From NCBI RefSeq assembly GCF_013315695.1, contig NZ_CP054353.1: a DNA stretch of 64,000 nt; one strand, 5' to 3'. A program made the translations under genes and the position numbers. This stretch comes from Escherichia coli. Lineage in GTDB: Bacteria > Pseudomonadota > Gammaproteobacteria > Enterobacterales > Enterobacteriaceae. Of the stretch, positions 2,409-45,395 are shown piece after piece (positions within the stretch are counted from its first letter, which is position 1; every line of letters begins with the position of its first letter). The notes under the pieces are model-generated. The model was not told where the DNA came from. It did no database searches and saw only the letters and a list, made by a program, of their open reading frames with translations.

Positions 2409-3410
2409 TTAACGCGCCAGGAATGCGCGCCAGTGGGCGGCGACTTCCGCCAGCTGAGCGCGCGAGACGTCAAGATGCGTCACCAGGCGGACAATCGGCG
2501 AGGCGTTAATCAGCACGTTTCTCGCTTTCATGTATTCGCCTAACGCGGCAGCATTTTCTTCCCCGACGCGAACAAACAGCATATTGGTGTCCTGACGCAT
2601 CACATCCGCGCCTGCTTCACGCAGCTGCTCCGCCATCCAGGCAGCGTTGTCGTGGTCTTCCTGCAAGCGCGCAACGTTATTTTTCAGGGCATATATTCCG
2701 GTGGCAGCCAGAATGCCGGACTGGCGCATCCCGCCACCTGTCATTTTCCGCCAGCGAATGGCACGTTTAATGTAATCACGATTACCGACGAGTAATGAAC
2801 CGACTGGCGTCCCAAGACCTTTCGACAGGCAAATGGTGAACGAATCACAATATTGTGTGATCTCTTTCAGTTCGCAGCCGTAAGCCACCACAGCATTAAA
2901 GATGCGCGCACCGTCCACATGCAGCGCCAGATTGCGCTCGCGGGTAAATTCCCATGCTTCTTTGAGGTATTCACGCGGCAGCACTTTGCCGTTGTGAGTG
3001 TTTTCCAGACTGAGTAATTTGGTGCGGGCGAAATGGATATCGTCGGGTTTGATTTTCATCGCCACTTTATCCAGCGGTAGCGTGCCGTCGGCAGCCGCGT
3101 CGATGGGTTGCGGTTGAATACTGCCCAGCACCGCCGCGCCACCGGCTTCAAACAGATAGTTATGCGCGGCCTGACCGACAATATACTCTTCGCCGCGTTC
3201 ACAGTGACTGAGCAGAGCGACCAGGTTGGCCTGAGTGCCGGTAGGCAGAAAAATGGCGGCTTCTTTACCGGAAAGCTCTGCTGCATAGTCCTGCAGAGCA
3301 TTAACGGTAGGGTCGTCTCCGTAAACGTCGTCCCCAACCGGGGCGGCCATCATCGCTTCGAGCATGGCGCGGCTCGGTCGGGTAACGGTATCACTGCGTA
3401 AATCAATCAT
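2409..3410 (-). CDS. ltaE: low-specificity L-threonine aldolase
   Basis: 333-aa [16 protein letters not shown]..., PLP-dependent aldolase signature; synteny ybjT-ltaE-poxB. Confidence 0.9.
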
Positions 3411-3446
3411 GGCATGTCCTTATTATGACGGGAAATGCCACCCTTT

Positions 3447-5165
3447 TTACCTTAGCCAGTTCGTTTTCGCCAGTTCGATCACTTCATCACCGCGTCCGCT
3501 GATGATTGCGCGCAACATATACAAGCTGAAACCTTTGGCCTGTTCGAGTTTGATCTGCGGTGGAATGGCTAATTCTTCTTTGGCTACTACCACATCCACC
3601 AACACCGGACCGTCGATGGAAAAGGCGCGTTGCAGGGCTTCATCGACTTCAGAGGCTTTTTCCACGCGAATACCCGTAATTCCGCACGCTTCGGCAATGC
3701 GGGCAAAGTTGGTGTCGTGCAGCTCAGTACCGTCTGTCAGGTAGCCTCCGGCTTTCATCTCCATCGCCACAAAGCCCAGCACGCTGTTATTAAAGACGAT
3801 AATTTTCACTGGCAATTTCATCTGCATTACTGAGAGGAAATCGCCCATCAACATACTGAAACCGCCATCGCCGCACATGGCGACCACCTGACGTTCCGGC
3901 TCGGTTGCCTGCGCACCCAGCGCCTGCGGCATGGCGTTAGCCATCGAACCGTGGTTAAACGAACCTAACAGACGACGCTTGCCGTTCATTTTCAGATAAC
4001 GTGCCGCCCACACCGTTGGCGTACCAACGTCACAGGTAAAGATGGCGTCATCGGCGGCAAAATGACTAATTTGCTGCGCCAGATATTGCGGGTGAATGGC
4101 TTTCTCGCTCGGTTTAGCTAAATCATCCAGCCCTTTGCGGGCGTCGCGGTAATCTTCCAGCGCTTTATCCAGAAACTTGCGATCGGTTTTTTCTTCCACC
4201 AGTGGCAGCAATGCCCGCAGGGTTGATTTGATATCGCCGACCAGTGCCATATCTACCTTGCTATGCGCGCCGATGCTGGCTGGGTTGATATCAATCTGAA
4301 TAATTTTGGCATCGGTCGGGTAGAACGCGCGGTAGGGAAATTGCGTGCCGAGCAGCACTAACGTATCGGCATTCATCATGGTATGGAAACCTGACGAGAA
4401 GCCGATTAATCCCGTCATTCCGACATCATACGGATTATCGTATTCGACATGCTCTTTACCGCGCAGGGCATGAACAATAGGCGCTTTAATTTTCCCGGCA
4501 AACTCAACTAACTCTTTATGCGCCCCCGCGCAGCCGCTGCCACACATCAGGGCGATATTGCTGGAATAACGCAGCAGTTGCGCCAGTTTGCGTAACTCTT
4601 CTTCTTCCGGCGTCACGACTGGTTGTGGCGCATTATACCAGTGGGTAGTTGCCCCTTCTGGTGCAGGTTTTAACGCCACGTCGCCCGGTAACACGACAAC
4701 GGAAACGCCACGGTTTAGCACTGCTTTGCGCATAGCAATTGCCAGCACTTGTGGGATCTGCTCTGGGCTGGAAACCAGCTCGCAATAGTGACTACATTCG
4801 CGGAATAGCTCTTGTGGGTGGGTTTCCTGGAAATAGCCGCTGCCAATTTCGCTGGAGGGAATATGAGCGGCAATCGCCAGTACCGGAACGTGATTGCGGT
4901 GGCAATCGAACAGGCCGTTGATTAAGTGCAGGTTGCCGGGGCCGCACGATCCGGCACAGACCGCCAGTTCTCCGCTAAGTTGTGCTTCAGCGCCAGCGGC
5001 AAACGCCGCCACTTCTTCATGCCGGGTGGACATCCACTCGATGGTGCCCATGCGATTAAGACTGTCACTAAGACCGTTCAGAGAGTCGCCCGTGACTCCC
5101 CAGATGCGTTTCACTCCTGCCGATTCGAGTGTTTTGGCGATATAAGCTGCAACCGTTTGTTTCAT
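3447..5165 (-). CDS. poxB: pyruvate oxidase (ubiquinone-dependent pyruvate dehydrogenase), TPP/FAD enzyme
   Basis: 572-aa [34 protein letters not shown]..., TPP-binding GDGG motif. Confidence 0.9.
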
Positions 5166-35608: not shown

Positions 35609-36423
35609 GTATGGAGTTGATGGTTAAAGCGATGAAAATTCGAGTGGGAAATCCATTGCGAAAACTGGTTCTGATTAAGCTGGCTGATAATGCCAGCGAT
35701 CAGGGTGAGTGCTGGCCCAGCTACCAGCATATTGCTGACCAGTGCGAGATTAGCAAACGTTCTGTGATGAATCATATTGCGGCCCTTTGTGAGTCCGGGC
35801 TGGTAAAAAAAGTCACCCGGAAAGGTGAAAAAGGTAACTCAAGTAATATCTATCTCCTTCATCTTGATGGTGCAGGAGATTCACTAGGGGGTAGTGCAAA
35901 TAATTCACTATCTGGTGCAGCAAATTCACCAGGTAGTGCAGGAGTTGCACCAGGGGGTAGTGCAGGAGATTCACCCAGAACCAGTCACTCTTTTGAACCA
36001 GTCAAAGAACCAGTCAATGAACCAATAGCTGTTGGTGCATCTGCTGATGAGTCTGTGCGAGTTCGTTCAAACCGACCGGAATACTCTCCGGAGTTTGAGC
36101 AGGCATGGCTGGCCTATCCAAAACGTGCTGGTGGCAATTCAAAATCTGCAGCCTTCAAAGCCTGGAAAGCCCGTTTGAATGAGGGGGTAAACCCCGAAAC
36201 CATGCTGGAAGGTGTGAAACGCTACGCGGGCTGGGTATCTGCGATGGGTAACAGCGGCACACAATTTGTGAAACAGGCTGTCACGTTCTTTGGCCCGGAT
36301 CGTCATTTCGAAGAATCCTGGGAAGTTCCTGCGGTATCTGCAGTCAGACGCGAGGACCCGTACTTCAAAGCCAGTTACGACAACGTGGACTACAGCCAGA
36401 TCCCGGAAGGATTCAGGGGGTGA
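35605..36423 (+). CDS. replication initiation protein (O-like, N-terminal HTH)
   Basis: 272-aa ORF in the O position; N-terminal HTH-like segment; internal DNA iterons at 35868-35976. Confidence 0.6.
   Translation: MSMELMVKAMKIRVGNPLRKLVLIKLADNASDQGECWPSYQHIADQCEISKRSVMNHIAALCESGLVKKVTRKGEKGNSSNIYLLHLDGAGDSLGGSANNSLSGAANSPGSAGVAPGGSAGDSPRTSHSFEPVKEPVNEPIAVGASADESVRVRSNRPEYSPEFEQAWLAYPKRAGGNSKSAAFKAWKARLNEGVNPETMLEGVKRYAGWVSAMGNSGTQFVKQAVTFFGPDRHFEESWEVPAVSAVRREDPYFKASYDNVDYSQIPEGFRG
35868..35976. repeat. iteron-like direct repeats (candidate replication origin) inside the O-like gene
   Basis: About five imperfect ~20-bp repeats of the form GGTAGTGCA(GGAG/AAAT)..TTCAC encoding a low-complexity G/S/A linker. 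Confidence 0.5.
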
Positions 36424-36914
36424 TCATGAGTCTTTTGAATGAAGTTCAGAAATTCATTGAAGCCCATCCGGGCTGTACTTCCGGAGACATTGCGGATGCT
36501 TTTGCTGGTTACTCACGGCAGCGCGTTCTGCAGTCAGCAAGCAAGTTACGTCAGAGTGGGCGTGTGGCTCACCGTTGTGAAGGAGATACACGCAGACATT
36601 TCCCACGCCTGACTGAGAGAGCGCAGGATCCGGAACCACAACCAGTTCGTGAAACCAGACCTGTGCGCAATTTCTATGTCGGCACTAACGATCCCCGTGT
36701 GATTTTGTGCCTGACCCGCCAGGCTGAAGAACTGGAGTCCAGGGGCTTATACCGTCGTGCTGCAACGGTGTGGATGGCGGCATTCCGTGAAAGCCACTCC
36801 CAGCCAGAACGAAACAATTTTCTGGCACGTCGTGAGCGGTGCTTACGGAAAAGCAGCAAGCGCGCTGCATCGGGTGAAGAGTGGTATCTGTCAGGGAATT
36901 TCGTGGGGGCTTAA
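36420..36914 (+). CDS. hypothetical protein (replication-module position)
   Basis: 164-aa basic ORF translationally coupled to both neighbours. Confidence 0.4.
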   Translation: MIMSLLNEVQKFIEAHPGCTSGDIADAFAGYSRQRVLQSASKLRQSGRVAHRCEGDTRRHFPRLTERAQDPEPQPVRETRPVRNFYVGTNDPRVILCLTRQAEELESRGLYRRAATVWMAAFRESHSQPERNNFLARRERCLRKSSKRAASGEEWYLSGNFVGA

Positions 36915-39261: not shown

Positions 39262-40257
39262 GTGACTGTGAGAGCACTACTGACCCCTGAAATTGCCCCG
39301 CGTATGGGGATCGTATTGTTCAGGCCAGGTTCAGAGCTGATGCCCCTGTTTATGCAGGGGCGTGTCCTGCTGGAGCCTGAGCCGGAGCGTTATTCATCTT
39401 TCGCCAGTGGTGCCGTTCCGGCGGCATCACAACCGCTGGCGGATGATCCTGCCGTTCGGGCCGTGTTCCGCCATGAGGCAGTGATCCGTCGTGCTGGTGG
39501 CGTGGAATGTCTTGAAAGCTGGTTACTTCGTGAAAAAGGCTGCCAGTGGCCTCATTCCGGATGGCACAGCGAGAACATGACCACAATGCGACACGCTCCG
39601 GGTGCAATCCGTCTGTGCTGGCACTGCGATAACCAGCTGCGCGATCAGTTCACGGAACGGCTGGAATCAATGGCAACGGATAACTGTGCCCGCTGGGTGT
39701 TGTCTGTTGTGCGTCGGGATCTCGGTTTTGATGACAGTCACGTTGTGACAATGCCGGAACTGTGCTGGTGGCTGATTCGTAATGACCTGGCGGATGCCTT
39801 ACCGGAAAGTGCAGCCCGTAAGGCACTGAGATTACCGAAGCCTGTTGTGCCGTCTGTCACCCGGGAAAGTGACCTTGTGCCTTCGGTTCCTGCCACCAGC
39901 ATCATCCAGGATAAAGCGAAAAAGGTGCTGGCGCTGAAAGTGGATCCGGAGTCGCCGGAGTCTTTTATGTTACGCCCCAAACGTCGCCGCTGGGTTAATG
40001 AAAAGTACACGCGCTGGGTTAAGACGCAGCCGTGTGCATGTTGTGGAAAGCCTGCTGATGATCCCCACCACCTGATAGGCCACGGTCAGGGGGGAATGGG
40101 TACAAAAGCGCATGACCTCTTCGTGCTGCCTTTGTGCAGAAAGCATCACGACGAGCTGCATGCGGATACCGTGGCATTTGAAGAGAAGTATGGCTCCCAG
40201 CTGGAGCTGATATTTCGTTTTATCGATCGTGCGCTGGCAATAGGCGTGCTGGCCTGA
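39262..40257 (+). CDS. DUF968-like protein (YdfU-like)
   Basis: 331-aa ORF (GTG start) with C-terminal cysteine/histidine cluster CACCGKPADDPHHLIGH...CRKHHDELH. Confidence 0.5.
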   Translation: MTVRALLTPEIAPRMGIVLFRPGSELMPLFMQGRVLLEPEPERYSSFASGAVPAASQPLADDPAVRAVFRHEAVIRRAGGVECLESWLLREKGCQWPHSGWHSENMTTMRHAPGAIRLCWHCDNQLRDQFTERLESMATDNCARWVLSVVRRDLGFDDSHVVTMPELCWWLIRNDLADALPESAARKALRLPKPVVPSVTRESDLVPSVPATSIIQDKAKKVLALKVDPESPESFMLRPKRRRWVNEKYTRWVKTQPCACCGKPADDPHHLIGHGQGGMGTKAHDLFVLPLCRKHHDELHADTVAFEEKYGSQLELIFRFIDRALAIGVLA

Positions 40258-40259
40258 TT

Positions 40260-40646
40260 TTGTGGAGAAAGTTGATGCGTGATATTCAAATGGTTCTTGA
40301 ACGTTGGGGGGCATGGGTGGCAAATAATCACGAGGATGTGGAATGGTCATCTGTTGCTGCAGGTTTTAAGGGATTAATTCCTTCGAAAGTAAAATCCCGC
40401 CCGCAATGTAGCGATGACGATGGCCTGATCATTAGCTCTGCGATGACAGTTCTTAAGAAAAAGGAACCGTATCAATACGAATTACTGGAAATGTATTATG
40501 TGTATGGGGTTACATTACGGGTGTTGGGGGTAAAACTGGGGATATCACTTAATCAGGTTGTTATCAGACTGCAGAAAGCTGAAGGGTTTATTGACGGTTG
40601 TCTGGCAATGTTGGGGGTATCTTTAGAAATTGATTGTTACATATAG
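40260..40646 (+). CDS. late-gene antiterminator Q
   Basis: 128-aa ORF resembling the short Q proteins of E. coli cryptic prophages (QuuD-like); true start may be MRDIQMVLERW at 40275; sits directly upstream of the late region. Confidence 0.7.
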   Translation: MWRKLMRDIQMVLERWGAWVANNHEDVEWSSVAAGFKGLIPSKVKSRPQCSDDDGLIISSAMTVLKKKEPYQYELLEMYYVYGVTLRVLGVKLGISLNQVVIRLQKAEGFIDGCLAMLGVSLEIDCYI

Positions 40647-40685
40647 TAATAAATTCAATCAAAGTAAATAATCATATTTTATTAT

Positions 40686-40718
40686 AACCTCCTGATGATA
40701 CCTGTTCATTGGGAGGTT
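40686..40718 (+). promoter_or_regulatory. RBS-sequestering hairpin upstream of the 214-aa cargo gene
   Basis: aacctcc(40686-40692) pairs with ggaggtt(40712-40718), which contains the GGAGG RBS for the ATG at 40722. Confidence 0.45.
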
Positions 40719-41339
40719 ATTATGGATAAAAATGTAGAGCATGTATTAGTTGATGCAATTGAAAATAAGCAATCTTTAACAGTCGTTTACTTAGGAGGGA
40801 GCCAGCCCGGAACATTAAGGAATATTTCTCCGATTAGTATAAATGGGGATAAATTGCGGGCAAGATGCCATAGTTCTGGAGCAGTAAAGGTTTTCAATCT
40901 TGGGAAAATACAGTTACCCAGTGACTCCTGCGCGGTATCTATGCACTATGGAGATTTAGAAGTTAAAGCTTATGAGACGATGCAGAGCGTAAATGACAAC
41001 TTTCATGCCCTTTATCCTGAAGGACGATGGGGTGTTGATTTTAATGAGCATCGCTTTGCTTTATTTGATTTTTTTAAAAACGGGAAACGAAAAAAAACGG
41101 CATTTATGGCAATTGAGTTCAGGGAAAGAGATGAAGAGAAAATAATAACAGGTGTAACAATTGATATTGGTATATCTGGAACAGTGATTTCTGAGAAGTC
41201 CCGAATCCCAAAAAGACGACCATGGGTAGTGGTTGGTCCCGAACACGGAGAATACAGTACTTATTCAACTTTGGACAAGGCTGCTACAGCGTTTTTTGAG
41301 AGGCTTTCGTTGATAGCATCCGGCCTGGAAGATAATTGA
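40695..41339 (+). CDS. hypothetical cargo protein downstream of Q, family not recognised
   Basis: 214-aa ORF, AT-rich; probable start MDKNVEH at 40722 preceded by a GGAGG RBS; segment YLGGSQPGTLRNISPISINGDKLRARC...FNLGKI could be a small beta-barrel ligand-binding domain. Confidence 0.5.
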   Translation: MIPVHWEVIMDKNVEHVLVDAIENKQSLTVVYLGGSQPGTLRNISPISINGDKLRARCHSSGAVKVFNLGKIQLPSDSCAVSMHYGDLEVKAYETMQSVNDNFHALYPEGRWGVDFNEHRFALFDFFKNGKRKKTAFMAIEFRERDEEKIITGVTIDIGISGTVISEKSRIPKRRPWVVVGPEHGEYSTYSTLDKAATAFFERLSLIASGLEDN

Positions 41340-41468
41340 TTTTATGTTTGGTATTCAGAGTTCGCCGTGCTTAAGAAAGTCAAGATTCTAAAAATACTGA
41401 ATGAGCTACTTGTGTTATAACAAAAATGCTATTAGTGTGTTAAGAGTGGTTACTTCGCCACACAACTT

Positions 41469-41494
41469 AAACCCGCCACTGAGCGGGTTTTTTG
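41469..41494 (+). terminator. rho-independent terminator
   Basis: acccgc-cactga-gcgggt stem-loop followed by TTTTTT. Confidence 0.75.
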
Positions 41495-41617
41495 TACCTG
41501 TAAACTTGGTGCAGTACAGTAAACACGCTGGTGGTCGTGAATACTGGCTTTTTATCTTGCTGGCTTTTTAGACAAGAGTTATTGGTATGTCACGTTAACC
41601 GGAAAGGGTAAAAAGAC

Positions 41618-41815
41618 ATGCTGAAACAGCAGGATATGACAGAAACCGCCAGAGTTGTGTTTGATGAATTAAGCGTTACCGAACCGGCGACAGTCGGGGA
41701 GATTGCGCAGAATACTTACCTTTCACGCGAACGCTGCCAGTTAATACTGACCCAGCTTGTTATGGCGGGTCTGGCAGACTATCAGTGCGGTTGTTACAGA
41801 CGCCTTCAGTCCTGA
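41618..41815 (+). CDS. small winged-HTH-like regulator
   Basis: 65-aa ORF; PATVGEIAQNTYLSRERCQLILTQLVMAGL resembles a PapI/FaeA-like winged helix. Confidence 0.4.
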   Translation: MLKQQDMTETARVVFDELSVTEPATVGEIAQNTYLSRERCQLILTQLVMAGLADYQCGCYRRLQS

Positions 41816-41949
41816 AGGCTTTTTATTTGTGGTGAATGGGCGGCTGGTGGGGGGGCGACACCTGTCAGTCCTTTGCTTATGTGTTGATGATAATTTACCT
41901 TTTGGGGCTATAATTGAGCTAACCAATTGCTAATGAAAGTAAAATTATA

Positions 41950-42663
41950 ATGGCTGTTGTCTGTTCAGTTATCATGGTTTGCTCCCCAATTAATATTTTT
42001 CTTGAAAAGGATACGTTGTCACTTAAGCCAGGCTCAGTTGTTCTGGCCACCAAATGCATCAGGGAGCTTTTCCTTATGCATTATGGCAAAGTTAAAATTG
42101 TCGATATAAGCGAATCCGTCGTAAGTCAATATCTGGAAAGTCAGCATAAGCTGACGAGGACTCGTCTGACTGACATTCCGCTTTACCTGTTGCTGGAACC
42201 CAACAATCCTGCGTTGGCTGCGGCTTTAATTACCAGCCAGGGATTTTCCGGAGAGGCCACGGATATGTTTCTTATGATGGCCTGCCTGTCTCTGTTTGAA
42301 ACAGATGAACGGATGTCATTGTTTTTAAGTGGATGTTTATCCAGCATAAGTGCCAAAGTCAGGGCGATAATTCAGACAGATATATCAGCAAGCTGGACGC
42401 TTGGTGCGATTGCTCTACAGTTGCATATGAGTGAGAGTTTGTTAAAGACAAAACTGAAAAATGAAGGGGGCATGTTCAGTCGCTTGTTGCTGGAAGAGCG
42501 GATGCGTGTTGCTGTAAATATGTTATGTTCCCGGCATGGATATGGACAGGCTATAGCAGAAAAATGCGGTTATTCAAGCAGGTCCTACTTTATTTCTGTA
42601 TTTCACCGCTATTATGGCTTCCCGCCAGACAGATATGTATCCAGGCAAGGGCTTGATTATTGA
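41950..42663 (+). CDS. AraC-family transcriptional regulator
   Basis: 237-aa ORF with C-terminal AraC-type dual HTH (WTLGAIALQLHMSESLLKTKLK ... IAEKCGYSSRSYFISVFHRYYGFPP); AT-rich. Confidence 0.7.
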   Translation: MAVVCSVIMVCSPINIFLEKDTLSLKPGSVVLATKCIRELFLMHYGKVKIVDISESVVSQYLESQHKLTRTRLTDIPLYLLLEPNNPALAAALITSQGFSGEATDMFLMMACLSLFETDERMSLFLSGCLSSISAKVRAIIQTDISASWTLGAIALQLHMSESLLKTKLKNEGGMFSRLLLEERMRVAVNMLCSRHGYGQAIAEKCGYSSRSYFISVFHRYYGFPPDRYVSRQGLDY

Positions 42664-42691
42664 TTTTCATCTGATTATTATTTTTTGGCTC

Positions 42692-42767
42692 GGCCCTTTA
42701 GCTCAGTGGTGAGAGCGAGCGATTCATAATCGCCAGGTCGCTGGTTCAAATCCAGCAAGGGCCACCA
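42692..42767 (+). tRNA. tRNA with CAU anticodon (Ile2/Met-type; ileZ-like)
   Basis: Cloverleaf GGCCCTT-TA-GCTCAGTGGTGAGAGC..anticodon loop TTCATAA..GGTTCAAATCC..AAGGGCC-A-CCA. Confidence 0.85.
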
Positions 42768-42774
42768 TCACATA

Positions 42775-42851
42775 CCGCCATTAGCTCATCAGGATAGAGC
42801 GCCAGCCTTCGAAGCTGGTTGCGCGGGGTTCGAGTCCTCGATGGCGGTCCA
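42775..42851 (+). tRNA. tRNA-Arg (anticodon UCG; argN-like)
   Basis: Acceptor CCGCCAT/ATGGCGG, anticodon loop CTTCGAA, T-loop GGTTCGAGTCC, encoded CCA. Confidence 0.8.
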
Positions 42852-42864
42852 TTATCTGTACCCT

Positions 42865-42941
42865 GCGTTATTAGCTCAGCCGGACAGAGCAATTGCCTTC
42901 TAAGCAATCGGTCACTGGTTCGAATCCAGTACAACGCGCCA
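42865..42941 (+). tRNA. tRNA-Arg (anticodon UCU; argO/argU-like)
   Basis: GCGTTATTAGCTCAGCCGGACAGAGC..anticodon loop CTTCTAA..GGTTCGAATCC..CGCCA, close to host argU. Confidence 0.8.
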
Positions 42942-42954
42942 GACTTATTTTTCC

Positions 42955-42980
42955 CGGCTCGCTTTTGCGGGCTTTTTTTT
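42955..42980 (+). terminator. rho-independent terminator after the tRNA cluster
   Basis: gctcgc-tttt-gcgggc hairpin followed by eight T. Confidence 0.7.
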
Positions 42981-43433
42981 AAATGTCTCACAATTCAGAC
43001 GGTTGACAGTTGTCTGTTTTGCGGGGAGTTTGTTAAAAGAAACTGGCATGGTGAATCCCCCTGTGCGGAGGGGCAATCAGCAACTGGTGTTTTGTCACCG
43101 ACCCTTATCCTTTCTGTGCGGGTTCAGGTGCTGATACTGAACTCACCGGGAGGCACCCGGCATCATGTGCATGATGATACAGATACGCGGCTTTAGCCCC
43201 TCTCCGGAGGGGCTTTCTTGTGGGCAAAAAAAAGCCCGAGTGGGTTCGGGCAACAGCATGAGATATACATTTTTATAATCGAATGGATTTTAACCAGAAT
43301 TCATAAGGCTGCGCAACTGCGCGGTCTTTTTCGAATTGCGGGCTGTCGTCTCTCTTCTGCCATTGTCCTGTAACTTCCGGACTTCAGCCCGCTCCTTATT
43401 TTACTCACAATATTATCCCGGCCGGGAGGATTC

Positions 43434-45395
43434 ATGGCATTTAAACACTATGACGTGGTCAGGGCGGCATCGCCGTCAGACCTTGCGAAACGACTGACAC
43501 AAAAACTGAAGGAGGGGTGGCAGCCATTTGGCAGTCCGGTGGCCATCACGCCTTATACCCTGATGCAGGCCATTGCGGCGGAAGGTGATGTCACCACACC
43601 TGTGGTGGTGAAGCCGTCGGATGGAGAAGGCGCAGTTATCAGCAACACCAGCAACCCGGAGTATTACTTTGTTGTTGCCCTGGCCGGGCAGTCAAACGGT
43701 ATGGCGTATGGTGAAGGGCTTCCGCTGCCGGAGACATATGACCGTCCGGACCCGCGTATTAAACAGCTGGCGCGTCGCAGCACTGTCACGCCGGGTGGTG
43801 CGTCCTGTAACTACAATGACATTATTCCTGCGGACCACTGCCTGCATGATGTTCAGGATTTGAGTAAGTTTTCACACCCGAAAGCCAGCGCAGCTCAGTA
43901 TGGATGCGTGGGGCAGGGATTACATATCGCGAAGAAATTGTTGCCGTTTATTCCGGCGAATGCCGGTATTCTTCTGGTTCCGTGCTGCCGTGGTGGTTCT
44001 GCATTTTTGGCGGGCGATGAAGGTACCTTCAGCGAATCCACCGGCGCAAGCGAGACCTCGGCACGCTGGGGTGTAGATAAGCCACTGTACAAGGACCTGC
44101 TTACCCGTACTCAGGCCGCACTGAAGGCCAACCCTAAAAATATTCTGCTTGCAGTGGTCTGGATGCAGGGCGAGTTTGATTTGAAACAGGGTGCATACGC
44201 CACTCAGCCGGGGCTGTTTGATTCCATGGTGGAAAAATATCGTTCTGACCTGTCGGAATTCGGAGGTCAGTGTCTCGGGGGCTCTCCGTCATCAGTTCCC
44301 TGGATTTGTGGCGACACGACCTACTACTGGAAGCAGACTTATTCTTCGCAATACGATGCGGTGTATGGTGCATATAAGACGAAATCCGCAAAAAAAATCT
44401 TCTTTGTGCCGTTTATGACGGATGAAAACGGGCGAAATGTGGGTACCAACGAGCCGTCAGAAGATCCGGATGTTGCGGATATTGGGTATTACGGAGCCGG
44501 TGGTCGAACGGACGCCAAAACCTGGACGACGGCTGACCGTAAAACGCATTTTGGATCATGGGCACGTCGTGGGATTATTTCCGACCGTCTGGCAACGGCG
44601 ATTCTTGTGCATGCCGGGAGAACCGCTGAATTCATTACCGGAAAACAGCCTGATACGGTGAAGCCCACCGGACCTTCCGGTGAAGGTACGGAGAGAGAGC
44701 CGGAAGGTCCGGTCAGTAACCGAACCCTGATGAGTCTGCTGGCGTCCGGCGAAGACCTGGCATCACAGGGCTGGCGCTATTATCACAAACCGGCGAGCGG
44801 AGACAATGTTAACAAAAACATTGCTGAAGCGGTGGTCAGTGATGCGGGGGCTACGGGAGGTAAGGCCCTGCAACTGAATAAACCGGAAAACCACATCTGG
44901 TTTCTGGAGCATGATGCAGCCGGGCAGGGGGCAGAGTTGCTGAAGAAAGGAGGACGTGTGAGCGTACGGTTTAAGTTGCCGGGTTCACTGGTGCCGAATC
45001 AGTTTGCCCTGGGCATTTACTGGCAGTTGTCGTCCCTGCCGGAGGGAGTGACGCTGGCAGAGGAAGGCAACGACATGCTGATGTCCTTCTTTCTGCAGAC
45101 GGATGCGACGAACCTGAACGCGATGCACCACAAGAAGCCGAATGCGAAGCTGGAAACGTTCGGGGTCTTTGATAACGGATGGCACACACTGGCTTTTGAG
45201 TTTGCCGGAAACAACAGCATTCAGGTGACGCCGGTACTGGATGAGAAACGGGGGACGCCGTTCACACTGGTGAAATCTCCGGCATCAGGGGCGGCGGACA
45301 AACTGCAACTGACAGGCATATCAAAGGCGGCGACATATACGCTGCTGATTGACAGTGTGAAGGTGGAAGTGAACAACGCGGATGCCGCGGCATGA
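43434..45395 (+). CDS. nanS-p: prophage sialate O-acetylesterase (NanS-p-like)
   Basis: 653-aa ORF; position and sequence recalled as the esterase found downstream of stx in Stx phages. Confidence 0.65.
   Translation: MAFKHYDVVRAASPSDLAKRLTQKLKEGWQPFGSPVAITPYTLMQAIAAEGDVTTPVVVKPSDGEGAVISNTSNPEYYFVVALAGQSNGMAYGEGLPLPETYDRPDPRIKQLARRSTVTPGGASCNYNDIIPADHCLHDVQDLSKFSHPKASAAQYGCVGQGLHIAKKLLPFIPANAGILLVPCCRGGSAFLAGDEGTFSESTGASETSARWGVDKPLYKDLLTRTQAALKANPKNILLAVVWMQGEFDLKQGAYATQPGLFDSMVEKYRSDLSEFGGQCLGGSPSSVPWICGDTTYYWKQTYSSQYDAVYGAYKTKSAKKIFFVPFMTDENGRNVGTNEPSEDPDVADIGYYGAGGRTDAKTWTTADRKTHFGSWARRGIISDRLATAILVHAGRTAEFITGKQPDTVKPTGPSGEGTEREPEGPVSNRTLMSLLASGEDLASQGWRYYHKPASGDNVNKNIAEAVVSDAGATGGKALQLNKPENHIWFLEHDAAGQGAELLKKGGRVSVRFKLPGSLVPNQFALGIYWQLSSLPEGVTLAEEGNDMLMSFFLQTDATNLNAMHHKKPNAKLETFGVFDNGWHTLAFEFAGNNSIQVTPVLDEKRGTPFTLVKSPASGAADKLQLTGISKAATYTLLIDSVKVEVNNADAAA

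Follow-up and report, generated by a model that had tools for sequence, protein, structure and literature searches.

Two neighbouring genes in the late region of a lambdoid prophage of Escherichia coli, one encoding a protein of 65 amino acids (aa) and the other an AraC-type regulator of 237 aa, raise the question of whether they work together or only stand side by side. They lie in a stretch of 64,000 nucleotides (nt) from contig NZ_CP054353.1 (RefSeq assembly GCF_013315695.1), called here the window, and an earlier note on this DNA had read them as a two-component regulatory module in which a PapI-like protein is the partner of a prophage AraC-like regulator. Both open reading frames (ORFs) are indeed present on the + strand at 41618-42663 and, as the note had placed them, between the Q cargo gene and a tRNA cluster, with a WYL-domain gene upstream and three tRNAs downstream. 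The answer reached here is that the AraC-type gene is, judging from its sequence, an allele of psrB, already studied as a lysogenic-conversion regulator of acid resistance, and that the two genes are in all likelihood unrelated elements made adjacent by phage mosaicism, psrB being cargo beside the conserved first gene of the late operon.

Concerning the 237-aa protein, its membership of the AraC/XylS family is supported by the presence of the C-terminal DNA-binding domain with two helix-turn-helix (HTH) motifs. The profile check suggested in the earlier note found this domain (Pfam HTH_18, 1.1e-9, residues 155-230; HTH_AraC motifs at 141-173 and 202-224). Residues 1-229 also align with positions 1-230 of the NCBIfam model for YdeO (NF007407; E = 4e-31, 108.5 bits), including the N-terminal domain, and the second-best NCBIfam model is GadX (E = 1.2e-24), which covers the DNA-binding half. 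The equivalog cut-off of the YdeO model, 348 bits, was not reached by the protein. Because its scores are far under the equivalog cut-offs, it is a paralogue, not an orthologue, of the chromosomal GAD regulators YdeO, GadX and GadW. It further differs from YdeO in being phage-borne and AT-rich and in having a shorter C-terminus. Since the YdeO match is full length, the start at 41950 is favoured over the shorter 195-aa calls found in some records.

The nearest known prophage regulator is the AraC-type protein of CP-933O in strain EDL933, with 234 of 237 residues identical (98.7%). The substitutions from the window protein to that of EDL933 are A103V, H195Y and I200V, all of them conservative. 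In CP-933O the gene order is the same as in the window (Q, 65-aa gene, 237-aa AraC gene, tRNAs, sialate esterase, lysis genes) and lies inside the published range of O-island 57 (OI-57; 1,849,324-1,929,825), where this is the sole AraC-type gene in the part examined. The EDL933 transcriptome table lists Z2104 as the regulator of AraC type in CP-933O, and two reviews (PMC10877973 and PMC8565820, summarising Tree et al. 2011 and Yang et al. 2015) identify Z2104 as PsrB. Given this identity of 98.7%, the window gene reads as an allele of a characterised regulator, a YdeO/GadX-like activator of the AraC family, and its likely targets are known.

According to the same reviews, PsrB binds directly to the hdeA and gadE promoters, which belong to the regulon of YdeO, GadX and GadW, raises acid resistance and passage through the mouse stomach, represses type III secretion indirectly through GadE and YhiF, and is active when psrB alone is supplied in trans. 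The Psr family is described there as prophage-borne, as activating gadE, yhiF and hdeA, and as associated with Pch/PerC regulators and effector loci. The proposal of the earlier note that this is a prophage AraC-like regulator of the kind that rewires acid-resistance and virulence regulons is thus well founded, while its statement that the controlled genes are unknown is superseded by the published targets of PsrB.

Other psr alleles are 90%, 78%, 62% and 59% identical to the window protein, and close relatives come from E. coli and Shigella only. The reviews describe another prophage AraC-like protein, PatE (Z0321/ECs_0287, in CP-933H/Sp1), which activates gadE and hdeAB and works at the hdeA promoter in the region that PsrB also uses, but it is only 37% identical and its gene lies at the end of a degraded prophage beside an IS element, not in a Q-to-lysis region. 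Across 5426 complete E. coli genomes, to which all the counts given here refer, the AraC gene is intact in 725, and RefSeq annotates the small gene as intact. PsrA and PsrB are about 90% identical to each other, and the 90% allele is presumed to be PsrA-like. For PsrA, the two reviews name the locus Z1789, in O-island 50. This locus tag appears inconsistent with the genome: tblastn gave no AraC homologue, even at E = 10, in EDL933 CP-933N (1,625,001-1,690,000) or in Sakai Sp6, and Z1789 is a "putative envelope protein" in the EDL933 transcriptome table. The O157:H7 genomes contain two psr gene copies, outside CP-933N/Sp6.

The small gene is of a different kind. Compared with the homologues from SfV and Salmonella, it has a ratio of nonsynonymous to synonymous substitution rates (dN/dS) of 0.05-0.10, and its synonymous sites have almost reached saturation; on this pattern the ORF is a real gene. 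The AlphaFold2 model, based on a 24-sequence alignment, reached a predicted local distance difference test score (pLDDT) of 92.4 and a predicted TM-score (pTM) of 0.79, with the topology H1-S1-H2-H3-S2-wing-S3 (helices 9-16, 26-33 and 37-49; hairpin 53-62). Foldseek returned generic winged-helix domains only (OhrR/MarR, IclR, the N-terminal domain of O-methyltransferases and T4 MotA; best E = 1.6e-3), and the TM-score of the model against MarR/OhrR winged-helix domains is about 0.8. The protein is therefore predicted to be a stand-alone winged helix, in agreement with the winged-HTH fold assigned in the earlier note. It is acidic, with an isoelectric point (pI) of 4.8, as are most relatives (4.5-5.6).

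Regarding its family, the small protein belongs to PHROG 331 (function unknown; E = 6e-37). It has no significant Pfam match, a search of PDB sequences with the family profile gave weak winged-helix matches only, and DprA_WH is matched by 9 of the 24 family members. The NCBI label of its homologues L23 of phiP27, orf47 of SfV and gp52 of mEp460 is 'TrmB family transcriptional regulator'. Membership of the TrmB family was rejected, since the Pfam match is weak (i-E = 0.0031), only 2 of the 24 members match at E ≤ 0.001, and the 65 aa leave no second domain; canonical TrmB proteins are much longer and carry a C-terminal sugar-binding domain. PapI and FaeA are likewise small stand-alone winged helices, the proteins compared having 65-77 aa. 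The Pfam FaeA/PapI model, however, did not match the small protein at E ≤ 10 or any of the 24 family members at E ≤ 0.1, and a profile comparison with a provisional PapI sequence gave 45% probability and 18% identity with the helices in register. The PapI likeness claimed in the earlier note is, by these comparisons, a generic similarity of fold class. Membership of the PapI/FaeA family was rejected also because every locus examined is the Q-to-lysis region of a lambdoid prophage and none lies beside a fimbrial operon. PADLOC defence-system models returned nothing meaningful for the 65-aa or the 237-aa protein.

The two genes also differ in distribution. The small gene is found in 2140 genomes (39%; 4057 copies), and its junction with a gene for a DNA methyltransferase in 1595, while its junction with the AraC gene is found in 696. 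Homologues are present in phiP27, SfV (L23 and orf47 are 92-97% identical to the window protein and occupy the same position after Q and the terminator), mEp460, cdtI and many Stx2a/c/d/k phages, as well as in phages or prophages of Klebsiella, Salmonella, Citrobacter, Hafnia, Morganella and Providencia. The usual layout, seen in phiP27, SfV, mEp460, 1720a-02, the Salmonella loci examined and most Klebsiella loci, is Q, terminator, small gene, about 150 nt and then an N6_N4 DNA methyltransferase of about 350 aa, instead of psr. Moreover, the Q gene upstream of the small gene belongs to at least four unrelated families among E. coli, Shigella, Salmonella and Klebsiella phages.

Around the psr homologues of 62% and 59% identity the orders are small gene/methyltransferase/psr and small gene/methyltransferase/TolA-like gene/psr, and the small gene was not found near PatE. 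All the examined alleles of at least 77% identity lie 135-139 nt downstream of the small gene, a constancy best explained by a single insertion in an ancestor, which recombination in the conserved flanking sequence then carried further.

The boundaries of that insertion are visible in the DNA alignment with phiP27, SfV and 1720a-02: collinearity begins at about 41420, covers the small gene and extends some 65 nt beyond it, until homology stops at about 41881, to resume at the first tRNA. Since homology is lost and regained at these points, an AT-rich cassette of about 800 bp (41.7% GC over 41884-42688) has, in the lineage of the window, replaced the methyltransferase cassette that is normally found 3' of the small gene. 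The cassette brings its own promoter-like site, conserved in the 90% and 77% psr alleles. In terms of composition, the AraC gene (43.8% GC) is AT-rich as the earlier note had stated, but the small gene (50.5%) is not, the window as a whole having 51.7%. The features of the region are collected in Table 1.

Table 1. Features of the prophage late region around the small gene and the psrB allele (window coordinates)
Feature	Position	Strand	Basis
Q antiterminator gene, ~125-aa Q type	40260-40646	+	PHROG 79 'anti-termination protein Q-like', E 2.4e-44
WYL-domain cargo gene, between Q and the putative late promoter	40695-41339	+	RefSeq (S88) 'WYL domain-containing protein'
Putative late promoter pR' (TTGTGT-N17-TAGTGT) and Q-type-specific transcribed start	41413-41447	+	Position and alignment only
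tR'-like intrinsic terminator, AAACCCGC-loop-GCGGGTTTTTT, with T-run	41468-41495	+	RNA fold -13.8 kcal/mol, z -2.4
Conserved late-operon leader with Chi 41527-41534 and ribosome-binding site of the small gene	41496-41617	+	Cross-phage alignment
Small gene, 65 aa	41618-41815	+	ORF with ATG start
Terminator-like hairpin over the stop codon of the small gene, then T-run	41802-41826	+	Terminator scan; RNA fold -11.2 kcal/mol
Long hairpin with Chi 41843-41850 in its 5' arm; last backbone element before the cargo slot	41836-41880	+	RNAalifold 16-pair stem
AT-rich psr cassette (cargo gene), in the slot taken up in most relatives by a DNA methyltransferase	41881-42688	+	Loss of homology
Promoter-like site ATGATA-16-TATAAT	41887-41914	+	Promoter scan; perfect TATAAT 41909-41914
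AraC-type gene, 237 aa (psrB allele)	41950-42663	+	ORF with ATG start
tRNA cluster, right edge of the psr cassette	42692-42941	+	ARAGORN, Rfam tRNA; anticodons Met-CAT, Arg-TCG, Arg-TCT

Upstream of the small gene, the four phages with the ~125-aa Q type share a block whose last letters, just before the terminator, are GTTAAGAGTGGTTACTTCGCCACA. The block is missing from loci with other Q families, where sequence conservation begins at the tR'-like hairpin. This block and the hairpin would correspond to pR' with a Q-specific start region, followed by tR'. The hairpin is kept in phiP27, SfV, 1720a-02 and mEp460, and its SfV equivalent is annotated as a putative rho-independent terminator. The leader that follows hardly differs between phages with four Q families, and mEp460 has it too in nearly the same form. 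The promoter scan found no sigma-70-like site in the 120 nt of leader before the small gene. On this reading of pR', the WYL gene would be upstream of the late promoter and the small gene would be the first late gene. The earlier note had given each of the two genes its own upstream region; such a region is present for both, but that of the small gene is the conserved late-operon leader and not a private promoter.

In mEp460 (3283-3704, compared with window positions 41400-41815) the leader is almost identical and the first 11 codons (MLKQQDMTETA) are common, while beyond codon 11 the protein is about 50% identical (51% overall) and basic instead of acidic. This suggests a recombination breakpoint inside the mEp460 small gene.

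Two further structures flank the 3' end of the small gene. The terminator-like hairpin over its stop codon keeps its stem throughout 11 homologous sequences, and two of the base pairs have undergone compensatory change. In E. coli, Salmonella and Klebsiella, the long hairpin behind it is better conserved than the synonymous sites of the small gene, and all its variation is one-sided with pairing kept. It could have a role in RNA processing or recombination, or as a binding site. An Rfam search of 40000-44000 returned no family for the pR'-tR' leader or for the hairpins near the small gene. The two Chi sites near the small gene share their orientation. The possibility that this flanking is something special was rejected, as Chi (GCTGGTGG) is very frequent over the whole window (30 sites, where shuffled sequences would give 2.7), with the sites in the prophage part mostly on the + strand.

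With these data, the alternatives to a relation of mere neighbours can be weighed. A true regulatory pair would mean that the small winged helix is a co-regulator of PsrB, as PapI is with Lrp, or a small anti-activator, and that both proteins jointly control acid-resistance or virulence genes of the host. The constant adjacency of the closer psr alleles to the small gene, maintained behind different Q genes and in 696 genomes, speaks for it, an acidic winged helix could be a protein-binding adaptor, and low-level reads come from both genes in uninduced EDL933. Nevertheless, the small gene is about three times as widespread as psr, mostly joined to the methyltransferase, and extends to genera in which close psr homologues were not found; the methyltransferase separates the divergent psr homologues from it, and PatE does without it. 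Between the two genes there is a conserved terminator hairpin, the psr cassette begins only past the conserved backbone, psrB alone is active according to the reviews, and the signature of PapI/FaeA is absent from the small protein and its 24 family members. On balance, a functional pair is quite improbable, and the two-component module of the earlier note gives way to a backbone gene with a cargo gene beside it. At the other extreme, the small ORF could be a chance frame in the leader of the late promoter, like lambda orf-64, which it resembles in size and in its position in the same Q-to-S gap; the lack of a significant Pfam match would fit. This has hardly any probability: the dN/dS pattern rules out a spurious ORF, the fold is predicted with confidence, the family is conserved in at least five genera, and the ORF lies downstream of the terminator and not inside the leader RNA. 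Lambda orf-64 was also rejected as a homologue, as BLASTP gave no alignment at E ≤ 100.

The small protein could instead control the cargo slot, binding the Chi-bearing repeat or hairpin at 41836-41880 and gating the gene in the slot (the methyltransferase, psr or, further on, tRNAs or stx), in the way of the controller protein of a restriction-modification system. The strong conservation of this 45-nt element, its retention in both the methyltransferase and the psr versions, and the suitability of a predicted winged helix for operator binding are in favour of this idea. However, sequence changes in the element preserve G-U pairs, as would suit an RNA hairpin more than a symmetric DNA operator, the protein is acidic, and the conservation may reflect Chi, recombination or RNA processing. 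Furthermore, known controller proteins have Xre-type HTH folds and not winged helices. Such a controller is unlikely, and the same holds for its most general form, in which the small protein would be a gatekeeper first made after Q antitermination that acts on this element and sets the expression or recombination of methyltransferase, psr, tRNAs and the Shiga toxin genes of phiP27, Stx2k and Stx2c phages.

Several points weigh against treating the two genes as unrelated neighbours, or against parts of that account. By synteny alone, the constant spacing of 135-139 nt may also indicate a functional link in that lineage. RNA-seq tables of uninduced EDL933 cultures give low read values for Z2103 and Z2104, which leaves room for some Q-independent expression of the small gene, although mapping is ambiguous for multi-copy prophage genes. 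A pI of 4.8 is unusual for a free-standing DNA-binding winged helix. Moreover, pR' was placed by alignment and was not reported by the consensus scan, and the identification of Z2104 as PsrB comes from reviews and not from the primary papers. Even so, the account of a conserved late gene with psrB as adjacent cargo is the one that we consider probable.

Regarding the surroundings, the order in the late region is KilA-N, DUF968, Q, WYL gene, small gene, AraC gene, three tRNAs, a sialate esterase of SASA type (43434-45395) and the lysis genes. Compared with CP-933O, the window prophage has a different Q type, the added WYL gene and a third tRNA, and is located at mlrA/yehV in urinary and meningitis-type isolates. 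Several human E. coli isolates, such as the urine isolate FDAARGOS_144, where the prophage adjoins mlrA/yehV, have the stretch 41340-42700 with 100% identity, and the meningitis strain S88 has it with 99.6%. The Q product, named 'antiterminator Q family protein' in RefSeq, shares 53-60% identity with its counterparts in phiP27, 1720a-02 and an O103 prophage.

The WYL gene has a GC content of 39.5%, a match to PHROG 8498 (function unknown) and a weak PADLOC WYL match (E = 0.0012). In relatives, other genes lie between Q and the putative pR': one for a GIY-YIG nuclease in phiP27, one for an Rce1/CPBP-like protease in an O103 prophage, and elsewhere unknown genes. This interval looks like a second variable cargo slot, in which defence-type genes may be found.

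On the other side of the cassette, the first tRNA (42692-42767) is a tRNA-Met (CAT) for ARAGORN and a tRNA-Ile in RefSeq for many genomes; presumably it is read as Ile after lysidine modification. It is the counterpart of the ileZ-type tRNA in Stx phages. Between the tRNA cluster and the esterase gene there is an Rfam match to STnc100 at 43017-43225 on the + strand (131.7 bits; gathering score 47). A match to the anti-sRNA AsxR lies at 43229-43281 on the - strand with 63 bits, exactly the gathering score, and a weaker AgvB match falls in the same place. Judging from these Rfam matches, with AsxR only at its gathering score, the late-region cargo seems to include regulatory RNAs besides PsrB. 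The window prophage also has a PerC-family (Pch-like) regulator gene in its early (nin) region, at about 36420-36914, and CP-933O likewise carries a regulator gene of the PerC/Pch family. The gene in the window prophage echoes the reported association of psr with Pch regulators, although the host is a urinary isolate.

Taking the locus as a whole, the following mechanism can be proposed. PsrB of the window would be transcribed in the lysogen from the promoter of its own cassette and, given its near-identity to the characterised protein, would most likely bind the gadE and hdeA promoters and switch on the GAD acid-fitness island, which would raise the acid survival of the lysogen. In strains with the enterocyte effacement locus (LEE), it would also repress type III secretion indirectly via GadE and YhiF. 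After induction, psrB would in addition be read by Q-modified polymerase coming from pR'.

The small gene would follow another logic. As it comes after pR' and tR' and has terminator hairpins on both sides, mainly Q-dependent expression is expected, and it would be made mainly under Q antitermination, that is, in lytic growth. Its product would then serve the phage and not PsrB. It is quite possible, if short of probable, that this service consists of binding nucleic acid in or close to the region of the conserved leader and the cargo slot, or of regulating that region; a protein-binding role is the main alternative.

These findings extend the range of PsrB beyond enterohaemorrhagic E. coli, since the allele is widespread in the species (725 of the 5426 complete genomes), including urinary and neonatal-meningitis isolates. 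The small gene, for its part, shows strong conservation as the leading gene of the phage late operon and lies immediately upstream of a slot that in several Shiga-toxin phages is filled with stx-linked cargo. If the hosts lack the LEE, as expected for urinary and meningitis isolates, only the acid-resistance effect of PsrB could matter for them.

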